NCBI GenBank assembly: GCA_964428495.1
Contig: CAYRXY010000003.1
Location: 9,588 to 73,587 of the forward strand
Length of the DNA stretch: 64,000 nucleotides
Direction: 5' to 3'
Source: an uncultured archaeon
GTDB taxonomy: Archaea; Aenigmatarchaeota; Aenigmatarchaeia; GW2011-AR5; JAHLMP01
In this document: one piece after another, positions 22,623 to 62,900 of the stretch
Layout of the letters: each line of letters begins with the position of its first letter
How positions within the stretch are numbered: the stretch's first letter is position 1
The notes under the pieces: model-generated
What the model saw: the letters and a program-made list of their open reading frames with translations, nothing else
The model's database searches: none
What the model was told of the DNA's origin: nothing
Program-made: the position numbers and the translations under genes

Positions 22623-23048
22623 TTGATAGATATGAAAGCGATAACTCCGGTAATTGCTATTGTACTCTTACTAGCAATAACAATTTCGATAGTAGCTTTT
22701 TCAATAACATATTTTCAGAGATTAACATCATCTGGACTTAAGAAAAGTACAGAGCAAATGGAAAATATCGAATATGGCAAGAATGTTGTTATAGATTCTG
22801 TAAGTACCAGTGGAAATCTAAAAGTCTATTTGAGATGGATTGGACCAAAATCGGTAAATGCAAGTGAGATTGCACTGTATGTAGATGGAAATGCAGTTGA
22901 ATGCAATCTCAAAGATCTCAGTGGAAACACTCTTTCAGAACTTTCTTCATCAAACCAGCTCGGTTATTGCAATACAACACTTACAACATGCAATAGTGTA
23001 AAGATAACTACTCCGACAAACATAGATGAAAGAAGTTGCAAATCGTGA
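22623..23048 (+). CDS. Putative archaeal type-IV-pilin-like protein (class III signal peptide)
   Basis: N-terminus MKAITPVIAIVLLLAITISIVAFSITYF resembles the prepilin/DUF361 N-terminal helix. 141 aa. Confidence 0.5.
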   Translation: MIDMKAITPVIAIVLLLAITISIVAFSITYFQRLTSSGLKKSTEQMENIEYGKNVVIDSVSTSGNLKVYLRWIGPKSVNASEIALYVDGNAVECNLKDLSGNTLSELSSSNQLGYCNTTLTTCNSVKITTPTNIDERSCKS

Positions 23049-42678: not shown

Positions 42679-43214
42679 AATACACCTCTCTTTATTATTA
42701 GAGCTACTGGCCTATTTTTTTTCTCCAGGCTTTTATTAGCCCTATAAACAGAACTTTTTATTGTAGTTGGTGAAATAATGTAATATTTTATATTTAGCAG
42801 TGACAAGATTGGAAGTGTAATTTTCCCATCAATTAAATGATGGGTCGCATCTTCTCCTTTACATCCTCTCCAGGTTATCAGAAATATAACTGGTATTTTA
42901 TATGAAAGAAGTAATGATGAAATATCATGTATTGAATTTAAGAAACCAGAGTTCTGCATATAGATGACAACTTTATTTCCAGCCATTGCTGCTCCCGCCG
43001 CAATTCCTATGGCCTCTCCTTCTCTAATCGCTGGTATATGGAAAATATTCTTATTTTTTTCAATTTCCCTGATAATATATTTTTGTACTGCGCACGGTAC
43101 ACCTGTTGCGAAGTTCACATTCACTTTAACTAAACTCCTTACAAGCTCTTTTGCCCTTTTCTTCCTAATAACCCCTGATAAAGGTTTGTAGGTGACTCCC
43201 TTCAATTTTTTCAC
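42675..43214 (-). CDS. TPP-dependent decarboxylase alpha subunit (ComD-like, pyrimidine-binding half)
   Basis: VNFATGVPCA...IPAIREGEAIGIAAGAAMAGNKVVIYMQNSG. 179 aa, with a 4-nt overlap to the beta subunit. The first M overlaps the upstream gene by 50 nt, so the start is uncertain. Confidence 0.7.
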   Translation of the reverse strand: MKKLKGVTYKPLSGVIRKKRAKELVRSLVKVNVNFATGVPCAVQKYIIREIEKNKNIFHIPAIREGEAIGIAAGAAMAGNKVVIYMQNSGFLNSIHDISSLLLSYKIPVIFLITWRGCKGEDATHHLIDGKITLPILSLLNIKYYIISPTTIKSSVYRANKSLEKKNRPVALIIKRGVF

Positions 43215-44306: not shown

Positions 44307-46346
44307 TCAGGACAAATTCACAGATCCAAATATCATTAATGTAAAGCCGAGAGTTAGAAAGTACATAATGGAGCCGAACCAAAGAATATGAAATATTAAA
44401 TTGTTCTTTCCGATTTTATCCTCACCATTTTGAATCCCGTTTATTAGAGTCCCTACGATATAGGAAGTTAGAATGAAATATATAGAAGACACGAGCTGAA
44501 ATTCCCCTTGTGTAATTTCTAGTTTACCCCACGGTAGAATTAACATGCTAGAAGCATATGTTCCCATAAGTTCTTGTCCGGTAAACTTTGTTGCTATTTG
44601 ATTTATTATATTTATCATAAGGTTTGAAAGCGTTACAATAACACCAGAAACTAATGGAGTCAAAATGTATCCCTGAAGCTTTAGAGCACTGACTATATCC
44701 TCTAAGAGATCGCTTATTCTTTCTTGTGTCTGATGTACATCATAGAGATATCTAGAAATACTCAACATCGCAGAGGCTGCAGCCTGTACACCTTTAGACG
44801 AAACATCAGCAACAGTCCTCATTATTGAATTGATTAGAGTAGATGGATAATAAAGAATAGCACCATATTCTGGATCAAATATAGCCTGTCGAAAAGTCAT
44901 TCCAAGTCTTTTTATGTTTCTAAGAATAATAACAAAGAATTTTTTTATGCTAAGGTTACCTATTGCGTGTATCAGCCTTTCTATTGCAACCTCTAATGGC
45001 ATTCCGGTAGAAAGATAATTTCCAAGTTGAAATAGAGCCTCTGTGAATTCTTCTTCTATTTTCCTTATTTCATTTCTCAATTCTATTCTTTGGAACGATG
45101 AAAGATAAAAATAAGATATTGATCCAACAATAAGACCAAAAGAAATTACTATAGATTGAAATAGATTATTCTCATCGGCCGCTGTAGCATTTATATAGAG
45201 ATGAGAACCGAAAATTATGAAAGGTAAAGCAACCAAAATTGAAAATGGTAGGACGGGAACAAAGTATTTCTTTTTTCCAATTCTTAAGGCAAAGGTCCCT
45301 TCTGGCGGCATATCAGGATGATGAACCGGTCTTATCTCACTAAACGTTGTCGGTCTTCTAGAAAGAATTTCAGAAACAAAAAACATAAGTGCAATTGGGA
45401 GAATTCCATCAAAACCTATGAATAGTATGGATGATTTTATCTTCATAAATATACCCAATACAGGAAATAGAACCATTCCTATGACTGGCAATAGAATTCC
45501 AAGAGCATGAAGAAGCATCACAGGTATTTTAAGTTCTTGTGAATAATGCTTGGCTTTTTCACTTGTTCCATCAAGCACTATCTTAACAGCTTCATCCAGC
45601 ATCTTTAGTCTTCTTTCCTCGGGTTGTGCTAATGCATTCCTTAGTGTTTGAACTGCCTCTATTATATACCGCTCTTCCTTCCATCTAGACAAATATTTCA
45701 TTAGTGCTTCATCAATATTTTCATACTTACCAACTTCAACATCCCATAAAATTTTTCTCATATCATTTGCTAATGGCCCTACGAGATTTCGAGCAGCGAA
45801 ATCAACTGCTCCTTCAAGATTTGGCGACTGTCTTAAATAAACAACCATATACAAAATAAGGAATGGAATTTCTGTTCCTATCTTAGTCATGTATTTTCTT
45901 TTATAGGTTATAGGATAGGTGTACAGATAGTAAGAGAACAACAATTCAAATAATATTATTATAAGTGCATGATTCAACGTAATACCAAGCTTCAGTATGT
46001 TTGATACTACCACAACAACTAAGGTTAAAATAATTGAACTTAAAAGAAAGAGCATAGCAAGAGATGTTGCACCTTCAGGTGTAATCTTCATCTTGGTTAT
46101 CTTTATTGCATCTATCATCTTCTTTTTAGTTTTTTCATCTGGTTGAACTTTCATTATCTTCTCTGCAAATTCACAAGCCTTCTCGTAAACTGTGTCCTTC
46201 TTCTTTAACATCTCTTCCTCTTCTAAAAAGAGCTTGTATTCTCGAGAAGCAAACTTATATGCAGGGACTTCTAACTTAACGTCTGATTTTTTCTTCTCCT
46301 TTTTCTTTTTGAAGAACTTCTTAAACCAATCAAGCATGTTTACCAC
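44307..46346 (-). CDS. Polytopic membrane protein of type IV pilus/archaellum assembly platform type (FlaJ/TadC-like)
   Basis: 679 aa with several TM clusters separated by two large cytoplasmic loops. Overlaps the upstream secretion ATPase by 17 nt. Confidence 0.6.
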   Translation of the reverse strand: MVNMLDWFKKFFKKKKEKKKSDVKLEVPAYKFASREYKLFLEEEEMLKKKDTVYEKACEFAEKIMKVQPDEKTKKKMIDAIKITKMKITPEGATSLAMLFLLSSIILTLVVVVVSNILKLGITLNHALIIILFELLFSYYLYTYPITYKRKYMTKIGTEIPFLILYMVVYLRQSPNLEGAVDFAARNLVGPLANDMRKILWDVEVGKYENIDEALMKYLSRWKEERYIIEAVQTLRNALAQPEERRLKMLDEAVKIVLDGTSEKAKHYSQELKIPVMLLHALGILLPVIGMVLFPVLGIFMKIKSSILFIGFDGILPIALMFFVSEILSRRPTTFSEIRPVHHPDMPPEGTFALRIGKKKYFVPVLPFSILVALPFIIFGSHLYINATAADENNLFQSIVISFGLIVGSISYFYLSSFQRIELRNEIRKIEEEFTEALFQLGNYLSTGMPLEVAIERLIHAIGNLSIKKFFVIILRNIKRLGMTFRQAIFDPEYGAILYYPSTLINSIMRTVADVSSKGVQAAASAMLSISRYLYDVHQTQERISDLLEDIVSALKLQGYILTPLVSGVIVTLSNLMINIINQIATKFTGQELMGTYASSMLILPWGKLEITQGEFQLVSSIYFILTSYIVGTLINGIQNGEDKIGKNNLIFHILWFGSIMYFLTLGFTLMIFGSVNLS

Positions 46347-48564
46347 TTGATTTCAGCCATTCTAACCATCTCTTATATATTTCATTCGAGTCCAACTCCT
46401 CAAACTCTTCCAGAACTTTACTGGAAATCAAATGAAACTGATCATTAGACTTAACAACAAACTCTGCTTCCAAAATTTCTGGATTTTTCTTTCCATATTC
46501 TGCAAGTGTTTTCATTATTTTAGACCTCAACATTATATTGTCCCAGACCTTATCCCATCTTCCTTTCCATTCCCTGACACGGGAGGCTATCTCATTCAAT
46601 ACAAATGATTCGCCGATACTCAATGTTTCGGTTGGTCTCAGTTCATCCTCTTTTGCATGATACTCGAGCAAATCAACAAATCCCCCTTCAGTAAGAGGGT
46701 CTTCCTTCCAATGTTTTCTAACCTCTGTAAGTTGTATTACTCTTCTAAATGTTGTTAAGCCATCAGGAGATCTAAGTCTGTTAGCAATGACTATAATGTC
46801 CGTCGCCTTAAAGCTGGTGGGAGGTACCCCCAAATCATTAACAACTCTATCGTATACACCATAGGGAGAGTCACCGTGTATGGTACCTGCCACTACGTTT
46901 GCTAATGCACCAATACGCATAGCCTCATATAGCGCCTTTGCCTCCACACTTCGAACCTCACCGACAATCAAACACGAATCTCCTAAACGAAGTGCAGTTC
47001 TCAACGCCTCATCTGCAGGAAGTTCTATTTCTACTTGAGTTATAACACTTCGTGATTTCAATTGCTCAATATTATATCCAAGCTCTCTCAACTTTCTTAC
47101 TGGAAGTTCTAATGTATCTTCTAATGTTACGATTCTTGATTTTCTCATTATTTGAAGCATCATCGCACCTAACAATGAAGTCTTACCACTTGAACGAGTA
47201 CCAGCAATTAATATACTCCTTCCATTGTCAACTAAAAACCAAAGTAATCCAGCTGTAAATGGATTTATCATCCTATTTGATACGAATAGAGGAAATGTCC
47301 AAGGTCTTTCTCTATGTCGTCTTAAAGCAAATGCCAAACCTGTTGGTGAAAGTGTTCTCGTAATTGAACAGACTCTTGCATGACCTCCGGGTATAAAAAG
47401 CTCTGTATCGAGAACTGGGTTCGCCTCGTCCAATGGCCTTCCTGATAAAAGTCTCAATCTTGTCGCCCAAGATTCAGCATCCTCTCTACTAGGTATTAGA
47501 TTCGTCTCACACTCCTCAAAGTCGTTGTGAAAGATATATATTGGCGATCTACCTATAGGAGAGTTTACGGAAATATCCTGAATCTTTTCATCTGCAAGTA
47601 AAAGCTCTAAGATACCAAAACCAGCTGTATATCTAGTAAGTATTCGTGCAAGCAAATCTATCTTATCAGATGAAAGCCTTACACCATGTCTATTTGCCAG
47701 ATCAGATACCAAGTCCTTTGAAATGTTGTAAAAGGTTTCCCTCATCGTTTTTGGATCAGATAGTTCCGGTCTTCGTGGCTGGTGAGCTGCAAGATATCTC
47801 CTTGCAGCATCAAGTATTGTATATTCATCCTCTTCCAACCTAAATTCTGGTGGTAACATATGATAAAGATATCGAACCTTTCCAGGTAATCTAAAGATTT
47901 CTACGATTGATTCTCCAACCTTATAACGATAAACAAGCTCTGCATTTTCTGGTGGTATTGCAAGATAATAAGTGTACATAAAGTTCGGTCGAATTGTTGG
48001 ATGAAATATTTCTCGGTAGAATGATCTGTCCTTTATTGGTTTATCTAACACATCCTTAGCCAGTTCAAATATTTCACATCGATCGAGAATTTCCTTCATA
48101 GGAAGTAGAGCTTTTCTTAAGTACTTTGAATAACATTCTTGACATATACCTTTAGACCTTTCTAATCTCACTTTGACATGTCGAATTTCACGTATCAACT
48201 GTTTGTATGCATTCAAAGGATCATACTTAATTTGATCTACTAAATTTCTCAAAAAAGCATATCTAGTGGGAACACACTTATCACATCCTTTTACAGAAAT
48301 ATTTTCTAAAGAAATTAAACGCTTTCTCATTATCTCTTGAATTGCATCTGCAAGTTGAACTAGTAATTTTACTTGGGGATAGTCATACTCATATTCTCTT
48401 GTTTCAGCGAGGACGATTTTAGAAACCTTTTTTACTTCAAATAGCTTCTCAATTATTCTTCCCATACATACTTCGCTATCCTCTATACTTGCTCCATATA
48501 TGCAACCCAGACAGTTAATTCTCATCGTCTGGTTTTTATCATCGTAAGTATAATCACAAACCAT
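46330..48564 (-). CDS. Type II/IV secretion-family ATPase (FlaI/TadA/VirB11-like)
   Basis: Walker A LIAGTRSSGKTSLLGAMM, Asp box, Walker B/His box region DSCLIVGEVRSVEAKALYEAMRIGA...GTIHG. 744 aa. Confidence 0.85.
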   Translation of the reverse strand: MVCDYTYDDKNQTMRINCLGCIYGASIEDSEVCMGRIIEKLFEVKKVSKIVLAETREYEYDYPQVKLLVQLADAIQEIMRKRLISLENISVKGCDKCVPTRYAFLRNLVDQIKYDPLNAYKQLIREIRHVKVRLERSKGICQECYSKYLRKALLPMKEILDRCEIFELAKDVLDKPIKDRSFYREIFHPTIRPNFMYTYYLAIPPENAELVYRYKVGESIVEIFRLPGKVRYLYHMLPPEFRLEEDEYTILDAARRYLAAHQPRRPELSDPKTMRETFYNISKDLVSDLANRHGVRLSSDKIDLLARILTRYTAGFGILELLLADEKIQDISVNSPIGRSPIYIFHNDFEECETNLIPSREDAESWATRLRLLSGRPLDEANPVLDTELFIPGGHARVCSITRTLSPTGLAFALRRHRERPWTFPLFVSNRMINPFTAGLLWFLVDNGRSILIAGTRSSGKTSLLGAMMLQIMRKSRIVTLEDTLELPVRKLRELGYNIEQLKSRSVITQVEIELPADEALRTALRLGDSCLIVGEVRSVEAKALYEAMRIGALANVVAGTIHGDSPYGVYDRVVNDLGVPPTSFKATDIIVIANRLRSPDGLTTFRRVIQLTEVRKHWKEDPLTEGGFVDLLEYHAKEDELRPTETLSIGESFVLNEIASRVREWKGRWDKVWDNIMLRSKIMKTLAEYGKKNPEILEAEFVVKSNDQFHLISSKVLEEFEELDSNEIYKRWLEWLKSSGKHA

Positions 48565-48614
48565 AATTATCTCTTATAGTTTTTCCATTTATAATTTGAA
48601 AAGAAAAAAGAAAA

Positions 48615-49580
48615 TCATCTAACTAAGAATGCCCACCAAGGTCTTCTTATGTGAATTACATCTCCTGTAACTACGTCGGCACTACTTTCCACTGGAACGT
48701 TAACGTTAAACACACCGAGAAATTTTCCTGGTTTCAATGCTCTTACCTTGTAAACGACTTTGTTCCCTTCACTATCTATCTCAATTCGTTCAAGCTTCTT
48801 AAATTTGACTTGTTGCCTTATCTTGTTTATTACATCATCTGGAAGCGCCTTTATTTGAGCCGTAACGTTTCTTTCTGTTCGCACTACAACTGTTCCGTTT
48901 TCTATTTCGATATTTCTTCTCGTCACGACTGTTAGATTTCCTATTCTCATTTCAACTTCCCCCTTACTCTCGTTCACTGTCATATTCACTACTCTTTCTC
49001 GTATCCTCGCTCTAATTCTTGCTAACCTTGCAGGAATAGCTGTCTCGTTTGTCATATTTTTCATTCTTAACCATGCAGAAATTCTTGCTTTTCTAGGATT
49101 AATCACGAACCTTTCTATACCCTCTGTGTGATTAAGCGCATTTTCCACTTCAGTCTCATTTCCTGTTTTCACAATAGATATCTCAGTATTAGGAGCTATT
49201 ATGTGAATCTCCTTAGTATGATTTTCATTATTCTGACTAATTTCTATCACTGCCCTTGGAGTTGTTATGTATGTTTCCTTTGTTTCATTAGAGATTACCA
49301 TCGTTCTGTTTACCCCTCTACTACTCATAGAAATGATTTTCGACCCGTTAACAATCTCTCTAGTTATGTTAACCTTTCCCTCTGGTGTTTTTATTTGAAT
49401 CAATTTTGTACCGTTAATATCGACAACAGTTTTGTTCTTAAGTAAGTGGGATAACGCAACTGGTCTCATCTTGTTCATTATGTGAAGAGTCCCCGGTGCT
49501 GCGTTCTGACTCTGTGGAAATACTGCAAAGCCCACTGAAGCTACTAACAGAACTGATAATAAAATCAATAGTTTCTTCAT
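48615..49580 (-). CDS. Secreted N-glycosylation-sequon-rich protein, possibly pilus-associated
   Basis: Signal peptide MKKLLILLSVLLVASVGFAVF. More than 20 N-x-S/T sequons. Sits between the secretion ATPase and the ParA-like gene. Confidence 0.5.
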   Translation of the reverse strand: MKKLLILLSVLLVASVGFAVFPQSQNAAPGTLHIMNKMRPVALSHLLKNKTVVDINGTKLIQIKTPEGKVNITREIVNGSKIISMSSRGVNRTMVISNETKETYITTPRAVIEISQNNENHTKEIHIIAPNTEISIVKTGNETEVENALNHTEGIERFVINPRKARISAWLRMKNMTNETAIPARLARIRARIRERVVNMTVNESKGEVEMRIGNLTVVTRRNIEIENGTVVVRTERNVTAQIKALPDDVINKIRQQVKFKKLERIEIDSEGNKVVYKVRALKPGKFLGVFNVNVPVESSADVVTGDVIHIRRPWWAFLVR

Positions 49581-49584
49581 AGCA

Positions 49585-50325
49585 TCACCTAAACCATCTT
49601 CTTATAAATAAGAACATTGGCTCTTTATATTCTTTTCCTGTGAGTTTGGAGGCTAGTCGGAAAAATGCCACGCTCGCAGGAGCGTACGGATGATATTCAA
49701 CAACAGGTTTCTTTGCTGCCAAACTCCTCAAAACGTTCTTATCAAAAGGTATTTTACCTATCACAGGAGCCCCTAGGGTTGCTTCAACTTCAGCATCCCC
49801 AATCTCGTGTTTCTCCCTCATTACCCTGTTCAAAACTATACCCTTAATCTTCACGCCCATATCCTTGGCTACTTCCACTGTCTTTAATGCATCCGTAACA
49901 TCTGGAAGGTATGGCGATGTCACAACCAGTATTTCATCGCATGCTTCCAACACATTAATTGCCGTCTTATCTAGCCCAGGGGGTGAATCTATTAGAACTT
50001 TTGTATCAAACTCCTTTAGAGCCTGCTTTAGACCTGATGAGTCAATATTAAGATACCTAAGAGAAAGATGAGCTGGAATAAATCTAAGTCCTGTTTCATG
50101 TATATGAAGAGCTTCTAGAAGGGAAAGATTCTGATTAAGAACCTCATGAACCGTTTTATCATAATCAAAGATTCCCAAGTGTAGACCGAAGTTTGGATTT
50201 TTTAGGTCTCCGTCCATAACAACAACTTCCTCTCCAAGCTTGTGCATTGCTAGTCCAAGATTAACAGAAACCGTAGTCTTCCCAACACCTCCTTTACCAG
50301 ATACGATGCCAACGACATTCCTCAT
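49585..50325 (-). CDS. ParA/MinD-family ATPase (TadZ/CpaE-like position)
   Basis: Deviant Walker A GIVSGKGGVGKTTVSVNL. 246 aa. 4-nt overlap with the regulator gene. Confidence 0.85.
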   Translation of the reverse strand: MRNVVGIVSGKGGVGKTTVSVNLGLAMHKLGEEVVVMDGDLKNPNFGLHLGIFDYDKTVHEVLNQNLSLLEALHIHETGLRFIPAHLSLRYLNIDSSGLKQALKEFDTKVLIDSPPGLDKTAINVLEACDEILVVTSPYLPDVTDALKTVEVAKDMGVKIKGIVLNRVMREKHEIGDAEVEATLGAPVIGKIPFDKNVLRSLAAKKPVVEYHPYAPASVAFFRLASKLTGKEYKEPMFLFIRRWFR

Positions 50326-50705
50326 TTTTCAATCACTTTTACTTTATAATATTTTTTCTTTTCTTTTATTTCTCCTTCAAGTATTCCTTGAGATTCCAAA
50401 AATCTTAGATATTGATTTGCACGCGTTCGTGAAATACCAAGCTTCTTTCCAGCTTCTTTGGCTGTCATTGGTTTTTGCTTTAATAAAAATAATATTTGTT
50501 TTTCCTTCTTCGGATTGAGATCGTTCTTACCCTCTTTCAATCTCTTCTCTAAGCGCTCCACACGATGGCCAAGCTCTTTAAGCATTATTACAATTTCCTC
50601 TTTAACCTCTCTTACCTGAATTTTTCTTGGTTCACCAACAAGATTTTTTACCTTCAGTAAATCTTCAGAGACTTCAATCCTTCTCATTTCAATTATTATT
50701 ATCAC
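50322..50705 (-). CDS. Winged-helix transcriptional regulator
   Basis: C-terminal HTH MTAKEAGKKLGISRTRANQYLRFLESQGIL. First gene of the minus-strand pilus-assembly operon. Confidence 0.6.
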   Translation of the reverse strand: MIIIIEMRRIEVSEDLLKVKNLVGEPRKIQVREVKEEIVIMLKELGHRVERLEKRLKEGKNDLNPKKEKQILFLLKQKPMTAKEAGKKLGISRTRANQYLRFLESQGILEGEIKEKKKYYKVKVIEK

Positions 50706-50875: not shown

Positions 50876-51910
50876 ATGAAACAAGTAATTTTATTTTCGC
50901 TCTTAGTATTGTTATGTATATTTCCAGCTCAGTCCTTTGGCGGTTCAGTGCAAACGTGGCCAAAAAATGGAATATTAAATACGATCAATGATTTGATCGG
51001 AGGGGTCGTTAACTTTTTTGAAGGAATTGGAAGTAGCATTACGGGTATGATTACAGCAGTTCCAAAGGGTAGTATCCCATCTAGTGGTACAAAAATCCCA
51101 ACCACACCTACTTCACCAGAACCTATGACAACTCTATCTACAACAACGTCTACAAGCACTTCAACGTCTACCACTACATCGATCGCTACAACAACTACCA
51201 TTCCGACAACAAGCACTTCGACAACCACTACAAGCACTGTTGAGACAACTATACCTACAACTACAACCATAGAACCAACCACTACTGTCAATGAAACAAC
51301 GACAACGATCGAACCTAATACAACAACTACAGTGAACGAAACGACAACTACCATCAATGAAACTACTATCCTTCCTGTAGAAGCTCAGACAAAGAATATA
51401 ACTAGTAATGAAACCACTACCACAGTGGAAACGACTACCACGATAAATCAAACCTTGAACAATGCATTAAACCAAAATAATACCCTAAATGAAACAAATA
51501 TCACACTCACTACTCTACCTTCGACAACTAGTACAATCCTGACTACGACTAGTACGATACCGACAACTACAAGCACTCTGGAAACTACAACCGTGCCAAC
51601 AACGTTGGAAACAACAACTACGTTAAATGAAACCGAACTTCCAAACCTTGTGATTGGTGTTGCTATGCCCAAGAAGATAACAAGAGGACAAAAGTTTTCC
51701 ATAACTGTTAGCGTAAACAATCTAGGAGGTCCGGCTTCGGGACTTGATGTATCATTACTGCTTCCGGATGGATTTGAGGTAATAAGTTATGACTCTGATT
51801 GTTCGTCATTATCATATGGTCAAACCTGTTCAGCGTTGTTCGTTGTGAACAGCTCCCTATCTGCATCTCTGGGGGCAAATAATTTTGGTGTGTTGGTGAG
51901 ATATGAATAA
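50876..51910 (+). CDS. Secreted Thr-rich mucin-like protein with C-terminal CARDB/DUF11-like beta-sandwich domain
   Basis: Signal peptide MKQVILFSLLVLLCIFPAQSFG. About 200 aa of T/S/N-rich low complexity (TTTSTSTSTSTTTSIATTTTIPTTSTSTTTT...). C-terminal ITRGQKFSITVSVNNLGGPASGLDVSLLLPDGFEV. Confidence 0.7.
   Translation: MKQVILFSLLVLLCIFPAQSFGGSVQTWPKNGILNTINDLIGGVVNFFEGIGSSITGMITAVPKGSIPSSGTKIPTTPTSPEPMTTLSTTTSTSTSTSTTTSIATTTTIPTTSTSTTTTSTVETTIPTTTTIEPTTTVNETTTTIEPNTTTTVNETTTTINETTILPVEAQTKNITSNETTTTVETTTTINQTLNNALNQNNTLNETNITLTTLPSTTSTILTTTSTIPTTTSTLETTTVPTTLETTTTLNETELPNLVIGVAMPKKITRGQKFSITVSVNNLGGPASGLDVSLLLPDGFEVISYDSDCSSLSYGQTCSALFVVNSSLSASLGANNFGVLVRYE
51100..51620 (+). repeat. Low-complexity ACN-codon (Thr) tract
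   Basis: Repeated acaac/actac motifs encode poly-Thr/Ser. They generate several spurious antisense ORFs (50929-52114). Confidence 0.7.
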
Positions 51911-53969
51911 AGGAGTAAGTAGTGTAATAGCTGCTGTAATATTGGCATCGGTAATAGCTGTATCTGGACTTGCAGCTGTAAAGCTTTCGACTACAGGACT
52001 TCTCACAGCTGGAAAGATGAAGCAGCAAACATTACCTATGGAAGTGTTTGCTAATACGAATCTAAAACTTTGGTTAGAAAACGATACTCTAAAGGCAAAA
52101 TTAATATTAGACAATGAAACACCAGTCTCTGGTGAAACCGTCTATTTCTCATTTGATCAAAGTAAATACTCCGCCACCACAGATAAGAGTGGTGTCGCTT
52201 CTGTTAAAATAGGAAACTATTCCGGCGCCATTGTCGCATCCTATCCGGGAAATGGTAAGAAATACCTGAATGGGGTAGAGGAAAGTATTAGCACAGAGGA
52301 ACTGGATCTAAGTCAGATTCTTCCTCCTGAAGCAAAGAATGTAGTAGTTAAGGAAAAGGAAACGAGGAAGGTATTAAAGACATTCACGAGAGTAAAAAAT
52401 GTAAAACTGAAGATAATTACACCGAAAACTTCTCTTTTAACAGGGTTTGCTACAAAATCTGAATCATCTAAAATAATAGTTAAGAAACAAATTAGAGCCG
52501 TACTGAATCAACCTGTAAAGTGGAAAATAGATACCGGAAATTACGAAATCGAATATGAAACATCAAAACCAATTGCGAAGGAAATTATGCTGGGAAAAAG
52601 AAAGAAGATAATCGTAGAGTCGAATGCATCAGATCATTATTATAATATTTCCGCATTTACCACGATACCAGAACTCAGCTTTCAACCCCGTCTTTACCAC
52701 ATCGTAAATGGTCAGCGCATCGACGTGACAAATGATCCAAGGTACAACGTCTCCTACTGGGATACGAATGGTAACGGCTTATATGACAAGATTACGTGGA
52801 TTGTTCCGATGTTGAGTAACGATACATACGAAATCGATCTAACAATTCTTAATCTTCAATCTTACCCTACCGTCGGTGGAAACTGGACTGTTAAATTCAC
52901 AACACAAGGTACTGCCGACCTATGGATCAGACCTGTTAACGGAACTACATGGTCGCTCTCTTCCTCAGACAATACCGATCTTCAATTCTTAGATATTCGT
53001 TGTGGTAACGAATCAGTCAACTACCAATGGATTAACGGCTCTGTTTATGTATTGGGCTGGTCATGTAATGAAACAGGATATGAAATTAGTCATGTAAAGA
53101 CTCATGGTCATCATTACTTAGAATTCAAATTTGGTAATACAACAAAGTATGCAGAAAATTTTGCCAGTGGTCAAACAATCTGCGGTGTGACATTTAGTAA
53201 TATTACATACGAATTTTTGAACCCATATGGTAATACAATTTTAGCAGTGGATGACAACGGAAATGTCTTGATCAAAAGTACAAATGTTCATACAAGTACT
53301 GCACCGTCATCTGCACCAGTAAATGGTTTTGGAATTCAAATAAATGGTGTCTGGAATTGGACATTTAATGCAAGTGATGCCTACATTTCTGGTAATATTC
53401 AACGATCAATAATATTACCAACATCGGCGGGAGCGAACGATGTTCTCATAGTAAACGCTAGCAATGGCGTTCCACTCCTTTACTTTAATGGATCTTCTGG
53501 TGATCTATTAGCAAAAGGAGTTGTAGTTTATCAGGGAGCACAACTAAATTGTCCATCTGATGGATATTATTGCTATGCGACATATTATAGGGAACATAGA
53601 AATTATTATTGTAATGTATCATCTGGCGACTGTGATTATACCTACTCAAATCGAATAGATTGTAGAAAATACTGTAAAGATATTTGTCATAGATATACCG
53701 GATGTTCTAGTGGTGCATGTAGTGGATCTACTGCTTGTGCAGATAACTATCATTGTAAAGTTGGTTCAGGATGTATATCAGGTGATGGGTGTAGTGGATA
53801 TAAATTATGTTCATGCTCAGGTGGATCAGCAACATGTGTCTGTAACAAAGCGACATGTCATGCACCATGTGCAACTCATTCAGATTGCCCTTCAGGGTAT
53901 TGCTGTGACATGGGTACTTGTACTTGTTATAAATCTGATGGTAGTCTTTGTCCGGGTATGAACATATAA
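51903..53969 (+). CDS. Large prepilin-like surface protein (class III signal peptide) with extremely Cys-rich C-terminal domain
   Basis: N-terminus MNKGVSSVIAAVILASVIAVSGLAAV matches the archaeal prepilin KG|x hydrophobic-helix pattern. 688 aa. The last about 130 aa contain about 45 Cys (CKDICHRYTGCSSGACSGSTACADNYHCKVGSGCISGDGCSGYKLCSCSGGSATCVCNKATCHAPCATHSDCPSGYCCDMGTCTCY). ATGAATAA overlap with the upstream gene. Confidence 0.6.
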   Translation: MNKGVSSVIAAVILASVIAVSGLAAVKLSTTGLLTAGKMKQQTLPMEVFANTNLKLWLENDTLKAKLILDNETPVSGETVYFSFDQSKYSATTDKSGVASVKIGNYSGAIVASYPGNGKKYLNGVEESISTEELDLSQILPPEAKNVVVKEKETRKVLKTFTRVKNVKLKIITPKTSLLTGFATKSESSKIIVKKQIRAVLNQPVKWKIDTGNYEIEYETSKPIAKEIMLGKRKKIIVESNASDHYYNISAFTTIPELSFQPRLYHIVNGQRIDVTNDPRYNVSYWDTNGNGLYDKITWIVPMLSNDTYEIDLTILNLQSYPTVGGNWTVKFTTQGTADLWIRPVNGTTWSLSSSDNTDLQFLDIRCGNESVNYQWINGSVYVLGWSCNETGYEISHVKTHGHHYLEFKFGNTTKYAENFASGQTICGVTFSNITYEFLNPYGNTILAVDDNGNVLIKSTNVHTSTAPSSAPVNGFGIQINGVWNWTFNASDAYISGNIQRSIILPTSAGANDVLIVNASNGVPLLYFNGSSGDLLAKGVVVYQGAQLNCPSDGYYCYATYYREHRNYYCNVSSGDCDYTYSNRIDCRKYCKDICHRYTGCSSGACSGSTACADNYHCKVGSGCISGDGCSGYKLCSCSGGSATCVCNKATCHAPCATHSDCPSGYCCDMGTCTCYKSDGSLCPGMNI

Positions 53970-53984
53970 ATACGTGTGAGTAAT

Positions 53985-56900
53985 ATGATAAAAAAAATAA
54001 TATCGGCCGCGATTTTAATGTTATTTATATTATCCACTATAGCCTTTTCTTTACCCATATCTTCATCTTACATAGAATCTGGGAATAGTGCGACAGTTCA
54101 AATGAACTCTGGTTCTGTATTTTATGGAGAGGTTGATGCTGGTCAGGTCGTTTCTTGGAAATATCTGAAGTATCAAATTTCTGGAACTGGTATTACTGCA
54201 CAAGCTATGGTTAATGTTTCTGACTATGAAAACTTTGCCTCTGTAAAAGGTAGTACTGGTTGGTTTTCTATTAACGCAGATGGCGTACTTGATATTAAAG
54301 AATTATCATCAACATTTAACCTTCCATATGCACGATATGCTCGATTCGCAATAAAAGGAACTGGAGGAGCCTGGCAAATTGATCAATCATGGTTAGAAAT
54401 TTCCACCGGTCCTGATGTATTTCAACCAAAAACGTATTCTACTACAGGAACAGAAAAAACAACATTTAATGATGGTGATAATGTTGTAATAAAAGTGAAC
54501 GTTACAGATCCTGATGGGGCATCTGACATAGGTAGTGTATTGATAAACATAACTGATCCAAACGGTGTTTCAAGAGTTATAAATGGAGTAATGAGTGTTG
54601 ACTCTTCTATAAGTTACGGAAAAACGTATAGATATAACTTTTCAACTACAAATGTAAATGGGACTTGGTCCTTTACAATAGTGGCAAAAGATTCTACTGA
54701 AAAAACCGATTCAAAAGCTGGATCCTTTGTTATAGTTGATACACATGCACCAACCATTACTCTAAATTCTCCAGCTAACAATGATTGGACAAACAATAAT
54801 AAACCCACATTCTACTTTACACCTGATGATTATATTGATCCGGTTTTGGATTGTAGTCTTTACATTGATGGAAATGCCTGCGGTTCAACAACTGCAGATA
54901 GAGGACAACAATCAAGTATAACATCTACATGTACATTAACTGTTGGAGCTCACAATTGGTATATCAAATGTACAGATGATAAGGGTAATACCGGCCAATC
55001 ATCAGAAACGTGGACGATAAACATTGACACCACTCCACCAACCTATACTTGGCTTTCTCCATTGAGTGGAAGTTGGTATAAAGATGGAGATTCAATTAGT
55101 ATTGATGTTGATGTTTCTGATGGAACAGGTGTCGGAATAAATGATGGGGAAAATTGTAATGTAGAGATAGATGATTCAACGACATCGTTTACGGGGACAG
55201 TTACTTATAGTAGTGCGACAGGTAAATGTACTGGAACGATAAAGCTGAATAATCCATCAAATCTAGCAGAAGGTTCAAATTCTCATTCGATAACTGTTAG
55301 TGTTCCTGACAAGTTAGATAATGTACAGACATCTTCAGGACTGTTAATTTCGATTGATAATACTCCACCAACGATAACTTATGTAACTCTAAGTGATTAT
55401 GATGTTCAACCGGGGACAACAATCACGGTAACTACGGATGGCTCTGATTCACTTAGTAGCATAAATACTTGTCATGCTTATCTTGATGATGACACAAACT
55501 ATGGAAATGGATATCTAGATGACTTGGGTGAGTTAGGAACCGACTGTAGTGGACCTGTAACATTACCTTCTGTTAGCAACGGAATCTATTATATAGTCGT
55601 TAGACCAGTGGATAATGTGGGTCTTTCAAACACGAAGGCAAGTAGTGCGCTTAAAATCGATTCAACTTCCCCATCTTGTTTAATCAAATCAATAAAAGAA
55701 GTTTCTGGAACTGATTATTCTTATGTAAGTGGAACCACGATATGGTACAATAATGTAAGTAGTGGTTCATTCATGGTCAATGTATCTGCAAGTGACGATC
55801 TTGCAGGAGTAAGTAGGGTGGTGTTTCCTGCTACAACATCATCTGGTACAACCGACTATTCATCGCCATATAACCACACATACACCTGGTCTATTGGTTC
55901 GAGTTATTCCAGTACAGCAAATGTAACGTGTTATGATAAGGCAGAAAATTCCGCTACTACTTCATTTACCATAACTTTAGACAATACTCCTCCATCTGAT
56001 GGTTCAATAACTTACACTGATGGTTACTACACAACAAAGAGCGTTTCCATATCATATTCATTAGGTTCTGATAATGTGGGTGGTGTCGGCCTTAACACTG
56101 CAACTGGTAGGATTGAGAGAAACTCAGCACCACTAAGTGGTGGTGTTTGTGGTTCTTGGTCTGGATGGACAACGCTCTTATATGATTCTGATGGAACTCA
56201 TGTAGATGAAACCGTCCAAGATAATTATTGCTATCAGTATATATACAGAATCTGTGACGAAGTAAGCAATTGTAAAAATTACACTTCTACCAATATCGCT
56301 AAAGTGGATTCCGTATTACCAACAATTTCATATATTGAACCACCGACTGAAACAAACAACAGTATTATTCATGAACCATTCATAGAAGTGAAGGTTTCAA
56401 CAAGCGATGCTGGTGCTGGTGTTGATAAGATTACCATCTACCTCTACAGAGCAGATACAAAAGCCGGACCTTACACACTAAATGCGACCAAGACATTATA
56501 CTACTCTGGTCAAACCTCTGCTTCACTCTTGGCAAACTTCACGGGATTGGGAGATGGATTTTACAAGTTCAACGCAACAGTCTGGGATCAAGCAGGAAAC
56601 AAACAATCAACAATGACAAGAACCGTTTCAATAAGTCTTAACCCAACAAACTTAACAGATCTTTCGTATTCCTGTGAAGATGATTGTGGATGGGGTGAAG
56701 CATGGAACTTCACCGCCAACATCACCGACAAAGACAATAATCAACGGCTGAATCTCACGTTGCAGTTGTTTAATAGATCAGGATCCGGAATGTGGGAAAA
56801 CATCGACTCTAAAATAGTGTACAGCAACGGAGATAGTTTTGCCGAGACATTCTCGTTAGATCCTGCCTGGACTAATATAGATTCTAACAAAACAAGGGAG

Positions 56901-59900
56901 TTTAGATTTATGGCCACTGATAACTGGGATGCTACATTCTATAGCGATCCTATAACTGTCGATGTCAAGAGAGATGATGTGCTGTTAAGTATCACAAAAG
57001 GTATTAATGAAATTGTAAACAGGGATGACAGTACCGACTACTCAAATGTAACACTTGAAGCAAGGTTATACGATGTGGATAAAGACGGATACGTAGCTGG
57101 AGAAAACATAGATTTCTTGTTCTTAAATGCTAATGGTTGGATCAAAATAGGATCGTCCACTACAAATGGAAATGGTTACGCTGAATTTATATGGAACCCA
57201 GATTGTACTATCTCACCATTAGGAGAACATCAATGGAGTGTGAACCATTCAACAAGTTCATTATACAAATTTACATCTAACAGTAGTCAAGTAACAATTA
57301 GAGAAAAGCTTCATGTAACCATTTTACAGCCAACTAATGGTGAAATAGTACATAGAAATAAGATATATCAATACTTACGTGCTAGCATTGCCGATTCTTG
57401 TGGGAATGACTTAACATCTAGCTCTACGATAGATTGGTCAACAGGAGCAAAGGGTCCTAGCGTGGAATGGTCAGTACCAGATCAACTAGGGAATTTCACT
57501 ATAACCGTCAATGGAAGTATTTCTGATTCATTTTATGATCCAGGGGACTCGAGTGTCATCGTGAAAATATTTGGATATTCTAAAACCACCGACTTACAAA
57601 CATATGCTCTATGGTCTCATAACGAAACATCAGCAATTAAAGGCGAACCTGTTAAGATAAATTGCAACGTAAATGATGAAAAAGACTCTCCTATATCTAG
57701 CTATCCGGTGAATTTCTCTGTATTCAATTCCACTGGTTCACTAATCTCATCTTATGTAAACTATACCAATTCATCTGGTGTTGCAACGTGGATATGGAAT
57801 ACAAGTGGAAAATCCGTTGAGACTTACACGATAAAATGTTCAATAGATAATATCGAAGATCCTCAAAACCAACTATATTATAGTATTACTAGCGATTATA
57901 ACCAACTACAGAAGAGCTTTGATGTAAAATATCAAGATCGATTACTCCTTGAAACTGATAATAGCTGGATATATAGAAACAACACGTTTAACCCTCACGT
58001 AGCAACAATAACTGCAAAATTCATGAAATCATATGAGGATATGCAAAGTGGATATATAGAATTCACATATAAGAATGGAACACATATAGCCAGTTGTTCA
58101 GCCGATTCATCAGGTACATGTTCAATAACATACGATGAGTCAGACTCCGCAACTCCTGAGGAATATTTAATAAAAGTGGGTGCTGCAAAAGATCTCGATA
58201 ATTTCCTTGATAAAAATTATACTGCAACATCTAATATATCCATAGAAGTAAGAGGTAAATTAAGTCCTGTAACTTTAATCAAACCAATTTCAGAGGCTAA
58301 ATTCAATAAAACGAACTATATAAACTTTTCTTCATCTGTTGAAGATGAAAACGGTAATGTTGTAAATGCTAATGTTTCATATATTCTTTCTGGAAACAAT
58401 AAAGGTGACTTTAGAATAGTAAAGGACGTATCATCTGAAGAGACTAGATGGAAAATATTTAATGATCTAAAACCTGATTCATACTCAATAACTGTAAATG
58501 CAACAAGACCATATTATACAGGTAGTAGTACGCTTGGTTCGAGGAGTATTTACATTTACGGTTTTGCTAACGTCACGAATCTAACATTAGATTATCCTCT
58601 TTACAATGCACCAACAAAGGTAAGCTGTAAGGTAATTGATAGAGACTCATCTGAGCTTCCAATAAGTAAATATAATGTAAGCTTCTGGTATGAGAAGTTG
58701 GGTATATGGACTCTAATAGGGTCTAATCTGACAGACACCAATGGTACTGCTACGATGTGGTGGATTCCTGATATTGTAGGCACAACCAAACTAAAATGTA
58801 ATATTTCTGATCAATTAAAGATATTTTACTATGCAAATCCTTTAGCAAGTGAAGTGATCAATGACACTGTGTCTGTTGGCGATAACGAATCGCCAGAAAT
58901 TCATTCATTTGAAAAAATTGGAACTACACCGTTAGAGGCAAACCATCAGAGCTTGACATTCAAAGCAAACGTAAGCGATAATGTAGAGATAAGTAGTGTA
59001 CGGGTTGAGATTACCGGAGTTGAGAGTGATATTGTTATCTTAAACCCCGAGTCCATAGATGATAGAGGAAATGGAATTTATTCGATAGTTTATACACCAA
59101 AGAAGGGTGGATTTCACTATGCTACATTGTATGTAAATGACACGACTAACAATACCAACTCCAGTGAATCAATTAGCTTTAATGTAATTGGTACTGCTAA
59201 TGAGAGCATGAGTATTACACCAACCTCCGTAACAACGGATGATAACATAACGAGGGATAATCCTTACAACTTTACGCTAAATATTATTGTCAATAACACA
59301 GGATCATCAGATATTATTAACAATGGAACAATGTACAATGTCAACATGTCTCTTGATCTTCCAACCGGTTTCACAACAAAAAATATAACTAAAATATGTG
59401 AATCCGTTCCTGTTGGTGGAACGTGTGAATGGAACCCTGAAATTCAGGTAACGAATATTGTGGATCTCGGTACAAACACAATAACTATTAATGCTAAATG
59501 GAATAACCCAGATAACAGTATATCGACAGATTCTAAATCAATTTCAGTAGATGTTTTGGAACACCCAGAAATATCTATAGAACCTAACCCAGTAATAGGT
59601 ACAGCTAATCACGGAGAGACGATAGAAATACCTATAAATGTTTCAAACTTTGGAAACACAATTCTATATGCAATAGGTTCTTCCTGTTTAACATATACAT
59701 ATCCACTTAATTGTAGCTACATAACTCCATCGATTCCATATAGTTTAAATAAAAATGATACTCAAAGTGGTAATATTGTTGTTAAAATACCAAAAGGTAC
59801 TGATCCTAAACAGTACGAGTGGAAGCTTAGAATTAATTCAACAAAATATGTAAATAGTTATGGTGAATATGTCTCTTGTACTTCACAAGGATGTTATAAA

Positions 59901-62900
59901 GATATTACCGTAGATGTTAATGTAAATGAGGATAAAAGTTGGAGCATCTCACCTAATAAAACAAATCTTTTAGTTCCTATAGAAGATTATAGATCAATAA
60001 ACATAACATTAAACAATACCGGTAATGTTGATAGAAATTGGACTATTTCCACATCGGGCTGTGGTAACATAATTGGTCTAGTTGTATCTCATCCACAGTC
60101 TATATATGTTCCAAAAATCAGTAGCAAGATCATTCCTATAACCATAGATGCAACAAATGCCGAAAATGGTGGAAATTGCACGATAATTATTTCATTCAGT
60201 AATTCTAGTGCAGAACCACAAGCCAATAGCACGGTGATTAACTTAACTGTAGAGGACACCCCACCTAATTTTAATGTTCAGATTCTTCCATACGATTATA
60301 TAGATATGGGCAAAGAGGATGTTACAATAAACGCAACCGTGGGTGATAATAAATTAGTTATCTATGATGGTATCAATCTTACAAAACCAGACGGATCAAC
60401 TATAGTTCTAGTTGGAAAGAAAAGTGTTAGTCGACCATCTGATACAATGACACATGTCATCTTAAGTTCAGAATTAGACCAGCCAGGAGAATATAAAGTA
60501 AAGGTCTATGCATGGGATAATGCCAATCCAAGTAAATATAATGAAACTATTATAACTTTCCATGTATACCCAACAACATCTTTAGCATTAAAGACTAACT
60601 ATACGTCAACTACTATGTTGAATACTGTAGAAGTAAATGGAATAACAGCAGAGGATTCAAAGACTGTATCAGTTAACGTGACTATTAATAACACAAAGAG
60701 GATTGGAGCTTATAATGTTAATCTAACAGGAATCAATGGTCCATTGAATAAAAAATTCACTTTAACACCATCATCACAATACTACAATAAAATAAAGATA
60801 CCTCCTGTTATAAGTAAGGTATTCAATATAACGATACCCGCAGGTACACCACCTTCAGGCTCTACAGAATACTATGTTACATTCGGAGCTCGATGGGAGA
60901 ATCCGGATGGAACAATTGACTCTACTTCAACCCCCTTCTATATTAAAGTAAACCCGACGAAAATATTAGAGATCACATCCAATTCATCGACCTATACCGT
61001 TCCTCACGCATCAAAGAAAACAATAAATATTACTTTATATTCAAGAGGTAATGCTCCTATCGATAACATAAAATTATCATGTGTACCAGTCGGATTGATA
61101 GATTATTGTAAGAATTTCAGCGTATCTATTACACCATCAAGCACAAGTTTAGGAGCCGGAGAAAAGACAATAGCTAAAATGACATTAAATGTCCCATTCA
61201 CATATCCTCCTGGAGACTATAATATAAAAATCGTTGCAAATTCATCAGACTTAAATGACGTAGTAAGTCTTCCTTTAACTATTCACGTACCTGTAGACAC
61301 AACTTGGAACTTAACTCCAACACAATACAACTTCACAACAGGTAGTGGAAGCTATGGATACTTCTATGTCAACGTTTCATCATACGCAAACGTTAACTTA
61401 AGCTTTACAACATCTTACACCAATCCAAACATAACGGCTTCTGAAACAACCTTCACACTCAAAAAAGGCACACTTCGCCTCCTAAAAATTAATTATACGG
61501 CACCAGAACTTGCTGAGAATGAAAATGAAAGAAATATTACTGGAAATGTAACTGTTTCATGTACTGATTGTGGACCTCTACAAAATCAAATACAATCCTC
61601 CACTCTCAATGCAAACATGAGAGTACTTCCATTCAAGCTTTATATAGAAAATATTGAACCGACTAATGATATAAGAGCTGGAGACGAAATTCAGGCAATA
61701 GTAAATGTTACATTTGCGGGTCAAATCTTAACAGATCCAAAACTCGTAGCATTCAATGCATATATAGGAGATAAACCATGTGAAACTACAAGTGAATTAT
61801 TCAATATAAGTAAATGGAAGGTAAGATTCAAAGCACCAACACTCCCAGACGGGAAGAATTACACGTTGAGAATAGAAGCTATTCAACTACAATACAATGC
61901 AAGAACTCCAAGATATTTCAATTACATCCATTATAAAGACGTGACCCCTCCTAACATAACATCTGTTAAAACGAGCTTCATAGAACCACAAAAACCTGAA
62001 GAAATATACGTTAATGTAACCGACAATGTTAAGGTAGACAAAGTCTGGATAGTAATATACCACAATGGATCCGTATTTGGAAGCTTTAATTTAACTAACC
62101 TTACAACTAACTTCGTAAATTCAAAATGGAAATGGAAATCACCAGCATTAACTCTCCCAGGAGATTATGATGTTGTAATTTATGCAAATGATACTACTGG
62201 TAATATAGCAAACCTAAGTACATGGTTCAGAGTTAATCAAAAGGTTAGAATAGAGGGAATTGTAAAAGATGTTAAAGAAAATCCAGTACCAGTAGAATTA
62301 GGAATTTATAAGAATACAAAAGCTGGAATAGGTTCGTACATGGTTACAAAAATCATGAATCATACTGGAAGTTACAACGTAAGTATACCTAAAGGAAAAT
62401 ATGACATCACGATTAAGGCATTAGGTAATGAATTCACATTCAGAGATGTGAATGTTGAATCCAACTTAACAAATATAACCAGAGTGAGTGATGTTGATCT
62501 AAGTGTTGTAACTTCACAACTACCTCTAGAGGGGGGACAATTACTAGGAGCGATAGGAATTGAACATAACATTTCATATTCATCTGCAGATGTTATCTTG
62601 AACTTTTCATCAGAAAATCTGATTCCAGGAGATCTCGGACTGAAGAATATTGAGGTATATAGATGTGATGATTGGGACTTTGATAATCAAACATGTAATG
62701 GTGAATGGACCAAGGTAGAAAATACTGAGGTTGATGTGGCAAACTTACTCATAAAGGTACCGTCAACAAAGCTTTGTGCATTTGTAATTGTAAAACCAGC
62801 TGTTGCACCTTCTACAGTTACAGTTCCGCCACAGCAACCGACATCACCTGGAGGTGGCAGCACAGGCATATCATCTCAGTTAGAAGAGGCTTTAGAGAAA

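Follow-up and report, generated by a model that had tools for sequence, protein, structure and literature searches.

Gene layout and conserved partners

The stretch of DNA analysed here, hereafter the window, comprises 64,000 nucleotides of a contig from an uncultured archaeon of the Aenigmatarchaeota (CAYRXY010000003.1), and the gene of interest within it encodes a 688-residue surface glycoprotein with a cysteine-rich C-terminal tail. As the original prediction, made from the sequence alone, had described, the gene is an ATG-started open reading frame (ORF) on the forward strand; the start codon is backed by the orthologues P0006 and P0086, and the N-terminus of the product reads MNKGVSSVIAAVILASVIAVSGL. 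An identical product is on record (P0001), and we use that name for the protein below. The gene, its two neighbours on the same strand and the segments of P0001 are as follows.

50876..51910, forward strand: upstream partner, a Thr-rich mucin-like protein of 344 residues with a Sec signal, overlapping the P0001 gene by 8 nucleotides
51903..53969, forward strand: P0001, 688 residues, surface glycoprotein
51903..51992, forward strand: residues 1-30, MNK-G/VSSV (the slash marks the candidate cleavage site) and a 23-residue hydrophobic helix; class III-like signal or signal anchor
52056..52424, forward strand: residues 52-174, two immunoglobulin (Ig)-like beta domains (52-113 and 129-174)
52470..53177, forward strand: residues 190-425, the central domain, a double beta-sandwich of 235 residues
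53181..53549, forward strand: residues 427-549, ‘GN-hairpin’ repeats with units such as (V/I)D..GN(L/V).(L/I)KG
53550..53966, forward strand: residues 550-688, the cysteine-rich tail, comprising a neck (550-600) and repeats (601-688)
53985..64000, forward strand: giant ORF of at least 3338 residues with a signal peptide and Pfam matches, running off the window

The 8 nucleotides shared by the end of the Thr-rich gene and the start of the P0001 gene are ATGAATAA. This overlap had been noted at the outset, and it is retained at an orthologous locus (L088), where the orthologue of the Thr-rich protein precedes that of P0001; it suggests translational coupling of the two genes. Downstream, a stop codon and five codons (IRVSN) separate the gene from the giant ORF, which starts at 53985 in the same frame, again as first reported. 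The shared frame is coincidental, because at a more distant locus (L081) the gene for the tail-bearing relative P0052 and the homologue of the giant ORF lie in different frames, and because the giant ORF has a signal peptide of its own; a read-through fusion of the two genes was ruled out on the same grounds. At L081 an N/T-rich mucin-like gene overlaps the P0052 gene, and a gene homologous to the N-terminal part of the giant ORF comes after it (28% identity, E 1.5e-21). Since L081 keeps the whole trio and L088 its upstream pair, we regard the mucin-like gene, the P0001 gene and the giant ORF as a conserved unit.

The giant ORF encodes, in order, a signal peptide, approximately 3190 residues of Ig-like, NEW3 and CARDB-type sequence, a transmembrane helix at about 3201-3217 and a HerA/DUF87/FtsK-like P-loop (GATGSGKS). 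An extracellular giant joined in this way to a HerA-type ATPase is unusual. An exact-match search of metagenome contigs with the end of the window, made to recover the rest of the ORF, returned nothing, and we found nothing specific in the literature on DPANN cysteine-rich surface proteins or on HerA-fused giant proteins.

P0001 contains 19 sequons (N-x-S/T), compared with 8.9 ± 2.7 in shuffled sequences, and the density of sequons per 100 residues is 2.8-5 in P0001 and the neighbouring surface proteins, against 0.2-0.9 in cytoplasmic proteins. The sole hydrophobic stretch of the protein is formed by residues 4-27, with no transmembrane segment at the C-terminus. Because a C-terminal hydrophobic segment is lacking, only the N-terminal helix can serve as a tether, and a C-terminal sorting signal, PGF-CTERM or similar, was ruled out for the same reason.

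Domain architecture

A full-length AlphaFold2 model, built on 48 sequences, contains a helix at residues 7-30, with a predicted local distance difference test score (pLDDT) of about 80, followed by a 20-residue linker of low confidence, by the strands of the two Ig-like domains (pLDDT approximately 80-90) and by the double beta-sandwich of the central domain (pLDDT above 90). Across nearly all of residues 461-688 the pLDDT is below 50, and a second run restricted to residues 427-688, with a four-sequence alignment, was uninformative (mean pLDDT 41); because of this low confidence over most of the tail, we make no structural claim for it.

Foldseek comparison with the PDB returned generic chains of Ig-like domains alone, such as macroglobulin domains and adhesins, and weak Big_1 and MG4 matches lie at residues 63-103. 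PDB sequence searches gave nothing relevant for the N-terminal module or the central domain and no match for the tail. In the copies of Pfam and NCBIfam used, no model matched the central domain (whole-protein scans at E ≤ 1 and E ≤ 0.1) or the GN region (E ≤ 10). We read P0001 as a modular, adhesin-like surface protein with an N-terminal tether.

The central-domain family

The central domain places P0001 by homology in a large family of archaeal proteins, with 1366 cluster representatives at E ≤ 1e-3, a strongest match at E 1e-121 and a near-invariant motif, QSYP..GNWTV.F.T.G; relatives are encoded by 378 stretches in GTDB species genomes. The top matches are from Aenigmatarchaeota, and the best 80 loci are distributed over the Aenigmat-, Woese-, Nano-, Pace-, Micr- and Altiarchaeota and the Methanosarcinales, anaerobic methanotrophic archaea (ANME)-2 and Methanoperedens, together with single Nitrosopumilus and Thermoprotei genomes. 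Most of these proteins have an N-terminal transmembrane anchor behind a cytoplasmic extension of up to about 100 residues, which in some of them includes helix–turn–helix (HTH) domains. The relatives that bear an extension must be anchored proteins rather than prepilins, because their transmembrane helix follows a long cytoplasmic segment. Ig domains of the type found in P0001 also occur mid-chain in giant proteins of this anchor type.

P0001 shares with this unnamed surface family, which is mostly from DPANN archaea, ANME and Methanosarcinales, the order of Ig-like and central domains, the frequent N-terminal anchoring, the richness in sequons and the frequent presence of Cys- or Asp-rich partner modules; unlike P0001, most members carry LamG, beta-helix, Kelch or CCGDD-type modules. 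A further family feature is the motif TG[FYLW], in full [ILSP]-T-G-[FYLW], which lies 23-27 residues past the start of the transmembrane helix in 31 of 128 members (24%), against a background of 4.5%, the rate per equal-sized window elsewhere in the proteins P0001-P0185. In P0001 it takes the form STTGLL, at residues 30-35 (positions 51990-52007). The motif, of which we found no description in the literature and libraries consulted, may serve as a signal for the processing or sorting of surface proteins in archaea.

Some relatives, or the products of genes beside them, place a cytoplasmic HTH domain before a single transmembrane helix, followed outside by a central domain (P0003) or by a Cys-rich domain (L014, 5147-5911), an arrangement that suggests membrane-tethered one-component regulators sensing the exterior. 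In many family members (P0024, P0025, P0027, P0038, P0042, P0045 and others) the transmembrane helix is preceded by a cytoplasmic motif, M.YK(R/K)YIK..GK.YGPYYY.S.R..GKV, to which no family could be assigned.

Composition and conservation of the cysteine-rich tail

Of the 28 Cys residues in P0001, 25 lie within the last 139 residues (550-688), making up 18% of the tail and some 20 times the background, which is 0.88% over the other 41 ORFs of the window; under a binomial model with that background, 25 or more Cys among 139 residues have a probability of 3.5e-25. The densest run of 100 residues holds 21. The tail had first been described as about one-third cysteine, with about 45 such residues, which is roughly twofold too high. 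The neck, residues 550-600, is rich in Tyr and Cys, with seven of the latter, while residues 601-688 consist of Gly/Ser/Cys repeats with 18 Cys and no sequon. The Cys residues are spaced mainly as C-x3-6-C, C-x5-C being dominant, and six consecutive ones (606-636) are exactly 6 residues apart. CxC occurs three times, CC, CX3CH and CX4CH once each and CxxC not at all, and the 139 residues also hold 15 Tyr and five His; haem binding was ruled out, as there is no CxxCH motif. At the DNA level the tail is not a tandem repeat, has the same G+C content as the remaining gene and contains no alternative open frame.

The original prediction had proposed profile searches and structure prediction as the means of identifying the tail. 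The searches yielded no family match in Pfam or NCBIfam at E ≤ 10, the EGF, Dickkopf_N, granulin, EB and keratin-associated models included, and the AlphaFold2 models were unusable over the tail. Within the databases searched, a GN region followed by a Cys-rich C-terminus was found only in P0002, P0052 and P0103 besides P0001, with the GN region conserved at E 1e-17 to 1e-26; P0184 and P0185 match it more weakly with their C-terminal ends. The tail-bearing proteins are only 30-48% identical overall, yet the neck motif CPSD..C...E..NY.CN.SSGDC is kept in P0052 and P0103, and partially in P0002, and the Cys register is conserved. The part of the tail with 6-residue spacing aligns with internal repeats of P0103 at composition-adjusted E-values of 1e-9 and 3e-7, all nine of nine Cys being aligned in the better case, and the C-terminal endings, CCDFDTCTCYCSDFTCSY in P0103 and CCDMGTCTCYKSDGSLCPG in P0001, have CCD..TCTCY in common. 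Cys–Cys distances peak at lag 6 in P0001, at lags 5-6 in P0103 and at lag 6 in P0185, and a local motif, sDsdC.sGY.C....C, is found again in P0103, P0185 and P0060. Among the homologues the tail is between 139 and about 470 residues long, with its starting point and Cys register kept, and on these alignments it is a conserved, expandable module; the suspicion, raised at the outset, that its cysteines might be conserved in no homologue was not borne out.

A profile search based on the aligned GN regions and tails of four proteins retrieved only P0052, P0001, P0184 and P0185, and the same alignment found nothing in JGI metagenome contigs. A search with the tail alone (residues 529-688) produced no scored matches, not even P0001 itself, probably as a consequence of low-complexity handling.

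The GN unit, ..D..GN(L/V)y(L/I)KG.., to which no family could be assigned, also composes the whole of the 255-residue P0184, and GN units precede or follow Cys-rich regions in several proteins (for example, residues 724-820 of P0185). Reverse-transcriptase genes lie less than about 100 nucleotides after the genes for P0103 (L084, 2427-3338) and P0002 (L086, 2228-2830). The two enzymes are homologous to each other, contain the motifs GLPLGNPLSGTLANLYL and YADDFIILG, and match group II intron and retron models below the cut-offs; no template/variable repeat pair was found on the short contigs of these two loci. We rejected P0001 as the target of a diversity-generating retroelement, since tblastn with the two reverse transcriptases gave no match in the window, in which repeats were not searched for.

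Disulfides, metal ligands or low complexity

The tail cysteines are likely to be locked in intramolecular disulfides, to judge from the even number of Cys in the protein (28), their periodic spacing, the extracellular context and the precedent of other archaeal surface systems, archaeal type IV pilus loci being known to include large signal-peptide proteins with conserved and presumably disulfide-forming cysteines (Makarova et al. 2016, PMC4858521). Two observations weigh against this view of a conserved disulfide-rich module: neither AlphaFold2 run gives most of the tail a pLDDT of 50 or more, and only about four proteins carry the tail, so that its conservation rests on few sequences.

The local motif sDsdC.sGY.C....C in its general form, D.C..GY.C....C, resembles small disulfide-rich extracellular modules of the Dickkopf_N/colipase-like and EB-like kinds, although the tail itself has no significant match to any of them and the sole hint is a sub-threshold Dickkopf_N match in P0185 (E 0.009). 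Another comparison is provided by the beetle antifreeze protein, a disulfide-braced beta-solenoid with a Cys every 5-6 residues between turns rich in Gly, Ser, Thr and Asn. The tail resembles such an insect antifreeze-like solenoid in its Cys spacing, exactly 6 residues at 606-636, and in turns of that composition, and the Cys count of the protein is even, but no such fold is predicted and most of the tail has a pLDDT below 50.

The original prediction had also entertained a metal- or mineral-binding tail. On such a reading the cysteines would not be disulfide-bonded; they would bind metal in the manner of metallothionein or offer thiolate ligands to Fe, Zn, Cu or sulfide minerals. A Cys content of 18%, the five His, the three CxC motifs and the CC, CX3CH and CX4CH motifs are compatible with this, and many DPANN archaea inhabit reducing habitats, where extracellular disulfides are less favoured. 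The tail is also, like the metallothioneins, short, rich in Cys and poor in hydrophobic residues. The metallothionein-like reading nevertheless fits the composition poorly, because there is no CxxC and because the tail, with its 15 Tyr, is bulky, unlike those proteins; the Cys content of metallothioneins is about 30%, the dominant spacing in the tail is C-x5-C with neither CxxC nor CxxCH, the tail has many Tyr and His and is attached to a large extracellular glycoprotein, no metal-binding family was matched at E ≤ 10, and the recurrent motif and weak Dickkopf_N match of P0185 point instead to small disulfide-rich modules. We consider a metal-binding tail improbable. Less probable still, to the point where we give it very little weight, is a lineage-specific low-complexity sequence without defined fold or function. 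The empty search with the tail alone, the return of four proteins and no metagenome contigs from the profile search, the very low AlphaFold2 confidence and the variation in tail length from 139 to about 470 residues would all be expected of such a sequence. What it does not explain is the retention of the neck motif and the Cys register between proteins of 30-48% overall identity, the common CCD..TCTCY ending of P0103, the periodic Cys spacing common to P0103 and P0185, and a DNA sequence of normal G+C content without tandem repeats. For the disulfide-rich module that we favour, a role as a tip adhesin or in cross-linking, as first proposed, is possible.

Comparison with a near-identical strain

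A metagenome-assembled genome assigned to the Aenigmarchaeota (GCA_021160745.1; locus L085) is approximately 99% identical in DNA sequence to the window over the divergent operon described below, the Thr-rich gene and codons 1-127 of the P0001 gene. Together with the top central-domain matches, this near-identity points to a DPANN archaeon of that group as the probable source of the window. At a breakpoint directly after codon 127 (52281..52286, forward strand; compared with L085 4808-6808) the L085 sequence abruptly becomes unrelated to that of the window, with the reading frame still open, and the C-terminal sequence encoded there occurs nowhere in the window. On this comparison the breakpoint would be either a strain-level exchange of cargo or an assembly chimera; if it is not a chimera, the helix and the first Ig domain would constitute a fixed module and the rest of the protein exchangeable cargo. 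Surface-protein diversification has been reported in Nanoarchaeota (PMC6142677), and a fixed module with exchangeable cargo is the pattern expected of the host-contact proteins of an episymbiont.

The Thr-rich gene contains a degenerate 21-nucleotide tandem repeat (51245-51363, forward strand) that encodes a T-rich segment, and three in-frame indels of 12, 15 and 30 nucleotides distinguish it from its L085 counterpart, so that the length of the mucin-like region varies between strains.

Signal anchor or prepilin

Whether the N-terminal helix is a signal anchor or the processed helix of a pilin has to be judged from the N-terminal sequence, from the relatives and from the genes on the opposite strand, which, with a probable small pilin elsewhere in the window, are listed here.

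44307..50705, reverse strand: divergent operon resembling those for type IV filaments, identical in L085, comprising the next five entries
44307-46346, reverse strand: TadC-like polytopic membrane protein, with a weak T2SSF match (E 5.8e-4)
46330-48564, reverse strand: FlaI/TadA-like ATPase
49585-50325, reverse strand: archaeal MinD (TIGR01969, 209.7 bits, above the cut-off)
within 44307..50705, reverse strand: secreted protein of 321 residues
50322-50705, reverse strand: winged-helix/HTH regulator
22632..23045, forward strand: protein of 138 residues, MKAITPVIAIVLLLAITI, used as a positive control in the pilin-profile searches (21.8-25.5 bits with TIGR02537, whose cut-off is 20; weak match to Pilin_N at E 0.012)

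Archaeal class III signals have a charged residue at position -2 and Gly, Ala or Ser at -1, directly before a hydrophobic (H) domain of about 20 residues (PMC4371748, PMC3387779). The N-terminus of P0001, M-N-K(-2)-G(-1)/V-S-S-V with hydrophobic residues 5-27, conforms to this rule, and P0001 is the only complete ORF of the window to fit a FlaFind-style pattern. That much of the class III prepilin proposed originally was upheld, and a helix is indeed predicted at residues 7-30. The profiles tell otherwise: neither the whole protein nor its N-terminal 49-60 residues matched Pfam PF07790 (Pilin_N) or the NCBIfam TIGR02537 (arch_flag_Nterm) and UpsA models at E ≤ 10, although HMMER filters may hide very weak matches of this kind. 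The 138-residue control, which reaches the TIGR02537 cut-off, is likely to be a genuine small pilin, encoded 29 kb from the assembly operon. With the features of the rule present and those of the profiles absent, membership of P0001 in the pilin family is, from its sequence, not established.

An uncleaved signal anchor, as in most central-domain proteins, is the reading of the helix towards which we incline, with about even confidence. A sequence such as [KR][GA] precedes the helix in approximately 13% of the N-terminally anchored relatives, which is close to the chance rate; the helix is followed by a low-confidence linker of 20 residues and not by a packed head domain; Ig domains such as those after the helix occur also inside giant anchor-type proteins; the TG[FYLW] motif of the family is present as STTGLL; the 10-kb flanks of L014, L081 and L087 contain neither the ATPase nor the TadC gene and at most an HTH–MinD pair; and no prepilin peptidase gene was found in the 64-kb window. 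Some features speak against an anchor. A pilin is favoured by the K-G motif, by a leader, MNK, of only three residues and by the ATPase/TadC operon next to the gene, and the orthologue P0086 has SPTAWA in place of the TG motif; moreover, sequence by itself does not distinguish an anchor from a processed prepilin.

Processing as a prepilin is a serious candidate, though in our judgement a somewhat doubtful one, and the same tentative standing attaches to the fuller proposal that P0001 is a modular type IV pilin-like protein, cleaved after Gly4 by a prepilin peptidase, whose helix enters a filament built by the adjacent FlaI/TadC machinery, probably at low copy number or at the tip, with the Cys-rich tail as its adhesive end. 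In its favour are the Lys at -2 and Gly at -1 directly before a 23-residue H-domain, in the one complete ORF of the window that fits the rule; the orthologue P0086, in which the Ser at -1 (MNK-S) is allowed by the rule; and the IKG/FSSII of P0103. The divergent operon, with its FlaI-like ATPase, TadC-like protein and archaeal MinD, matches in composition the loci for archaeal type IV filaments (Makarova et al. 2016, PMC4858521) and is kept identically in L085, and the retention of residues 1-127 while the cargo is replaced is the pattern expected of a pilin module with a grafted domain. In P0165 the UpsA pilin profile recognises the N-terminus ahead of a central domain (E 1e-5), so that grafting of central-domain cargo onto a pilin helix does occur. 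Both large FlaFind-positive proteins and putative adhesins are known from the loci of archaeal type IV pili (Pohlschroder and Esquivel 2015, PMC4371748; PMC4858521), and modular pilins are established in bacteria (PMC8179133). The neighbouring FlaI, TadC and MinD genes accord with the pilin first proposed, but the linkage to the ATPase and TadC genes is absent at more distant loci, and most relatives are of the anchor type.

The comparison with known systems is similarly divided. Like archaeal proteins with class III signals, P0001 has a short basic leader, a K-G pair and a helix of about 23 residues, together with Ig-like domains, sequons and neighbours encoding a FlaI-like ATPase, a TadC-like protein and MinD; unlike the class III pilins, it matches neither Pilin_N nor TIGR02537, is 688 residues long with five further modules and a flexible linker, and its adjacency to the ATPase and TadC genes is lost in distant relatives. 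It resembles bacterial modular pilins such as PilB of Streptococcus sanguinis (PMC8179133) in having a small N-terminal module with a bulky graft behind a linker, the point of grafting corresponding to the strain-level breakpoint at residue 127. It differs from PilB in being archaeal and without sequence relationship, its cargo is an uncharacterised chain of domains rather than a vWA or lectin domain, and its N-terminal module is only a candidate for the pilin fold. Predictions from the class III rule for large archaeal proteins therefore need to be checked against profiles and family context before the label ‘pilin’ is applied.

A winged-helix and MinD pair also adjoins genes for central-domain surface proteins in the DPANN loci L003, L014, L015, L061 and L087, with no ATPase or TadC gene nearby.

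Proposed role of the protein and its partners

We propose, with about as much confidence as reserve, that P0001 is an extracellular, heavily N-glycosylated, modular and adhesin-like DPANN protein with an N-terminal signal anchor and a disulfide-rich tail, linked to its two partners. The N-terminal helix, most probably as an uncleaved anchor, would tether the protein to the cell, and the Ig-like domains, the beta-sandwich domains and the GN-hairpin repeats would form a stalk projecting the Cys-rich module from the membrane. In that module the conserved neck is probably continued by short Gly/Ser/Cys repeats, variable in number, and disulfides within these would make the distal end a rigid knob or rod, resistant to proteases and suited to contact with another surface. 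P0001 would act together with two presumably co-transcribed partners, the mucin-like glycoprotein and the giant Ig-repeat protein with its cytoplasmic HerA-type ATPase, and its cargo beyond residue 127 may be exchangeable between strains.

Physical contact with host cells is indispensable to DPANN archaea and, to our knowledge, the molecules of this contact are largely unknown. P0001 is a testable candidate for a contact protein, having a conserved tether and a cargo that differs between near-identical strains. Three of its modules are undescribed in the libraries used, one of them the central domain, which is present in hundreds of archaeal species, and it has a conserved partnership with a giant protein that joins the cell exterior to a cytoplasmic HerA-type ATPase. 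A bolder and, we think, improbable extension would make the trio a dedicated DPANN apparatus for cell-to-cell contact, with the tail as a strain-specific host-recognition tip on or beside a type IV filament and the giant ATPase-linked protein coupling contact to an energy-dependent transfer of DNA or other macromolecules. The ‘one-third-cysteine pilin’ that first drew attention to the locus is weaker than was stated; the trio with its HerA-linked giant and the exchange of cargo between strains are the more unusual items.

Other genes of the window

The window, with a G+C content of approximately 35%, includes genes for MCM, aEF-1alpha, a wyosine enzyme and CDP-archaeol synthase, which mark it as archaeal. 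Maturation of P0001 by the product of a radical-SAM-like neighbouring gene (43165-44262) was considered and found no support, as the matches are weak and the gene adjoins genes resembling those for phosphonopyruvate and sulfopyruvate decarboxylases. The gene at 15979-17229 on the forward strand encodes a serpin of full length (Pfam, E 1.7e-126), probably exported or membrane-tethered in view of its N-terminal hydrophobic segment.

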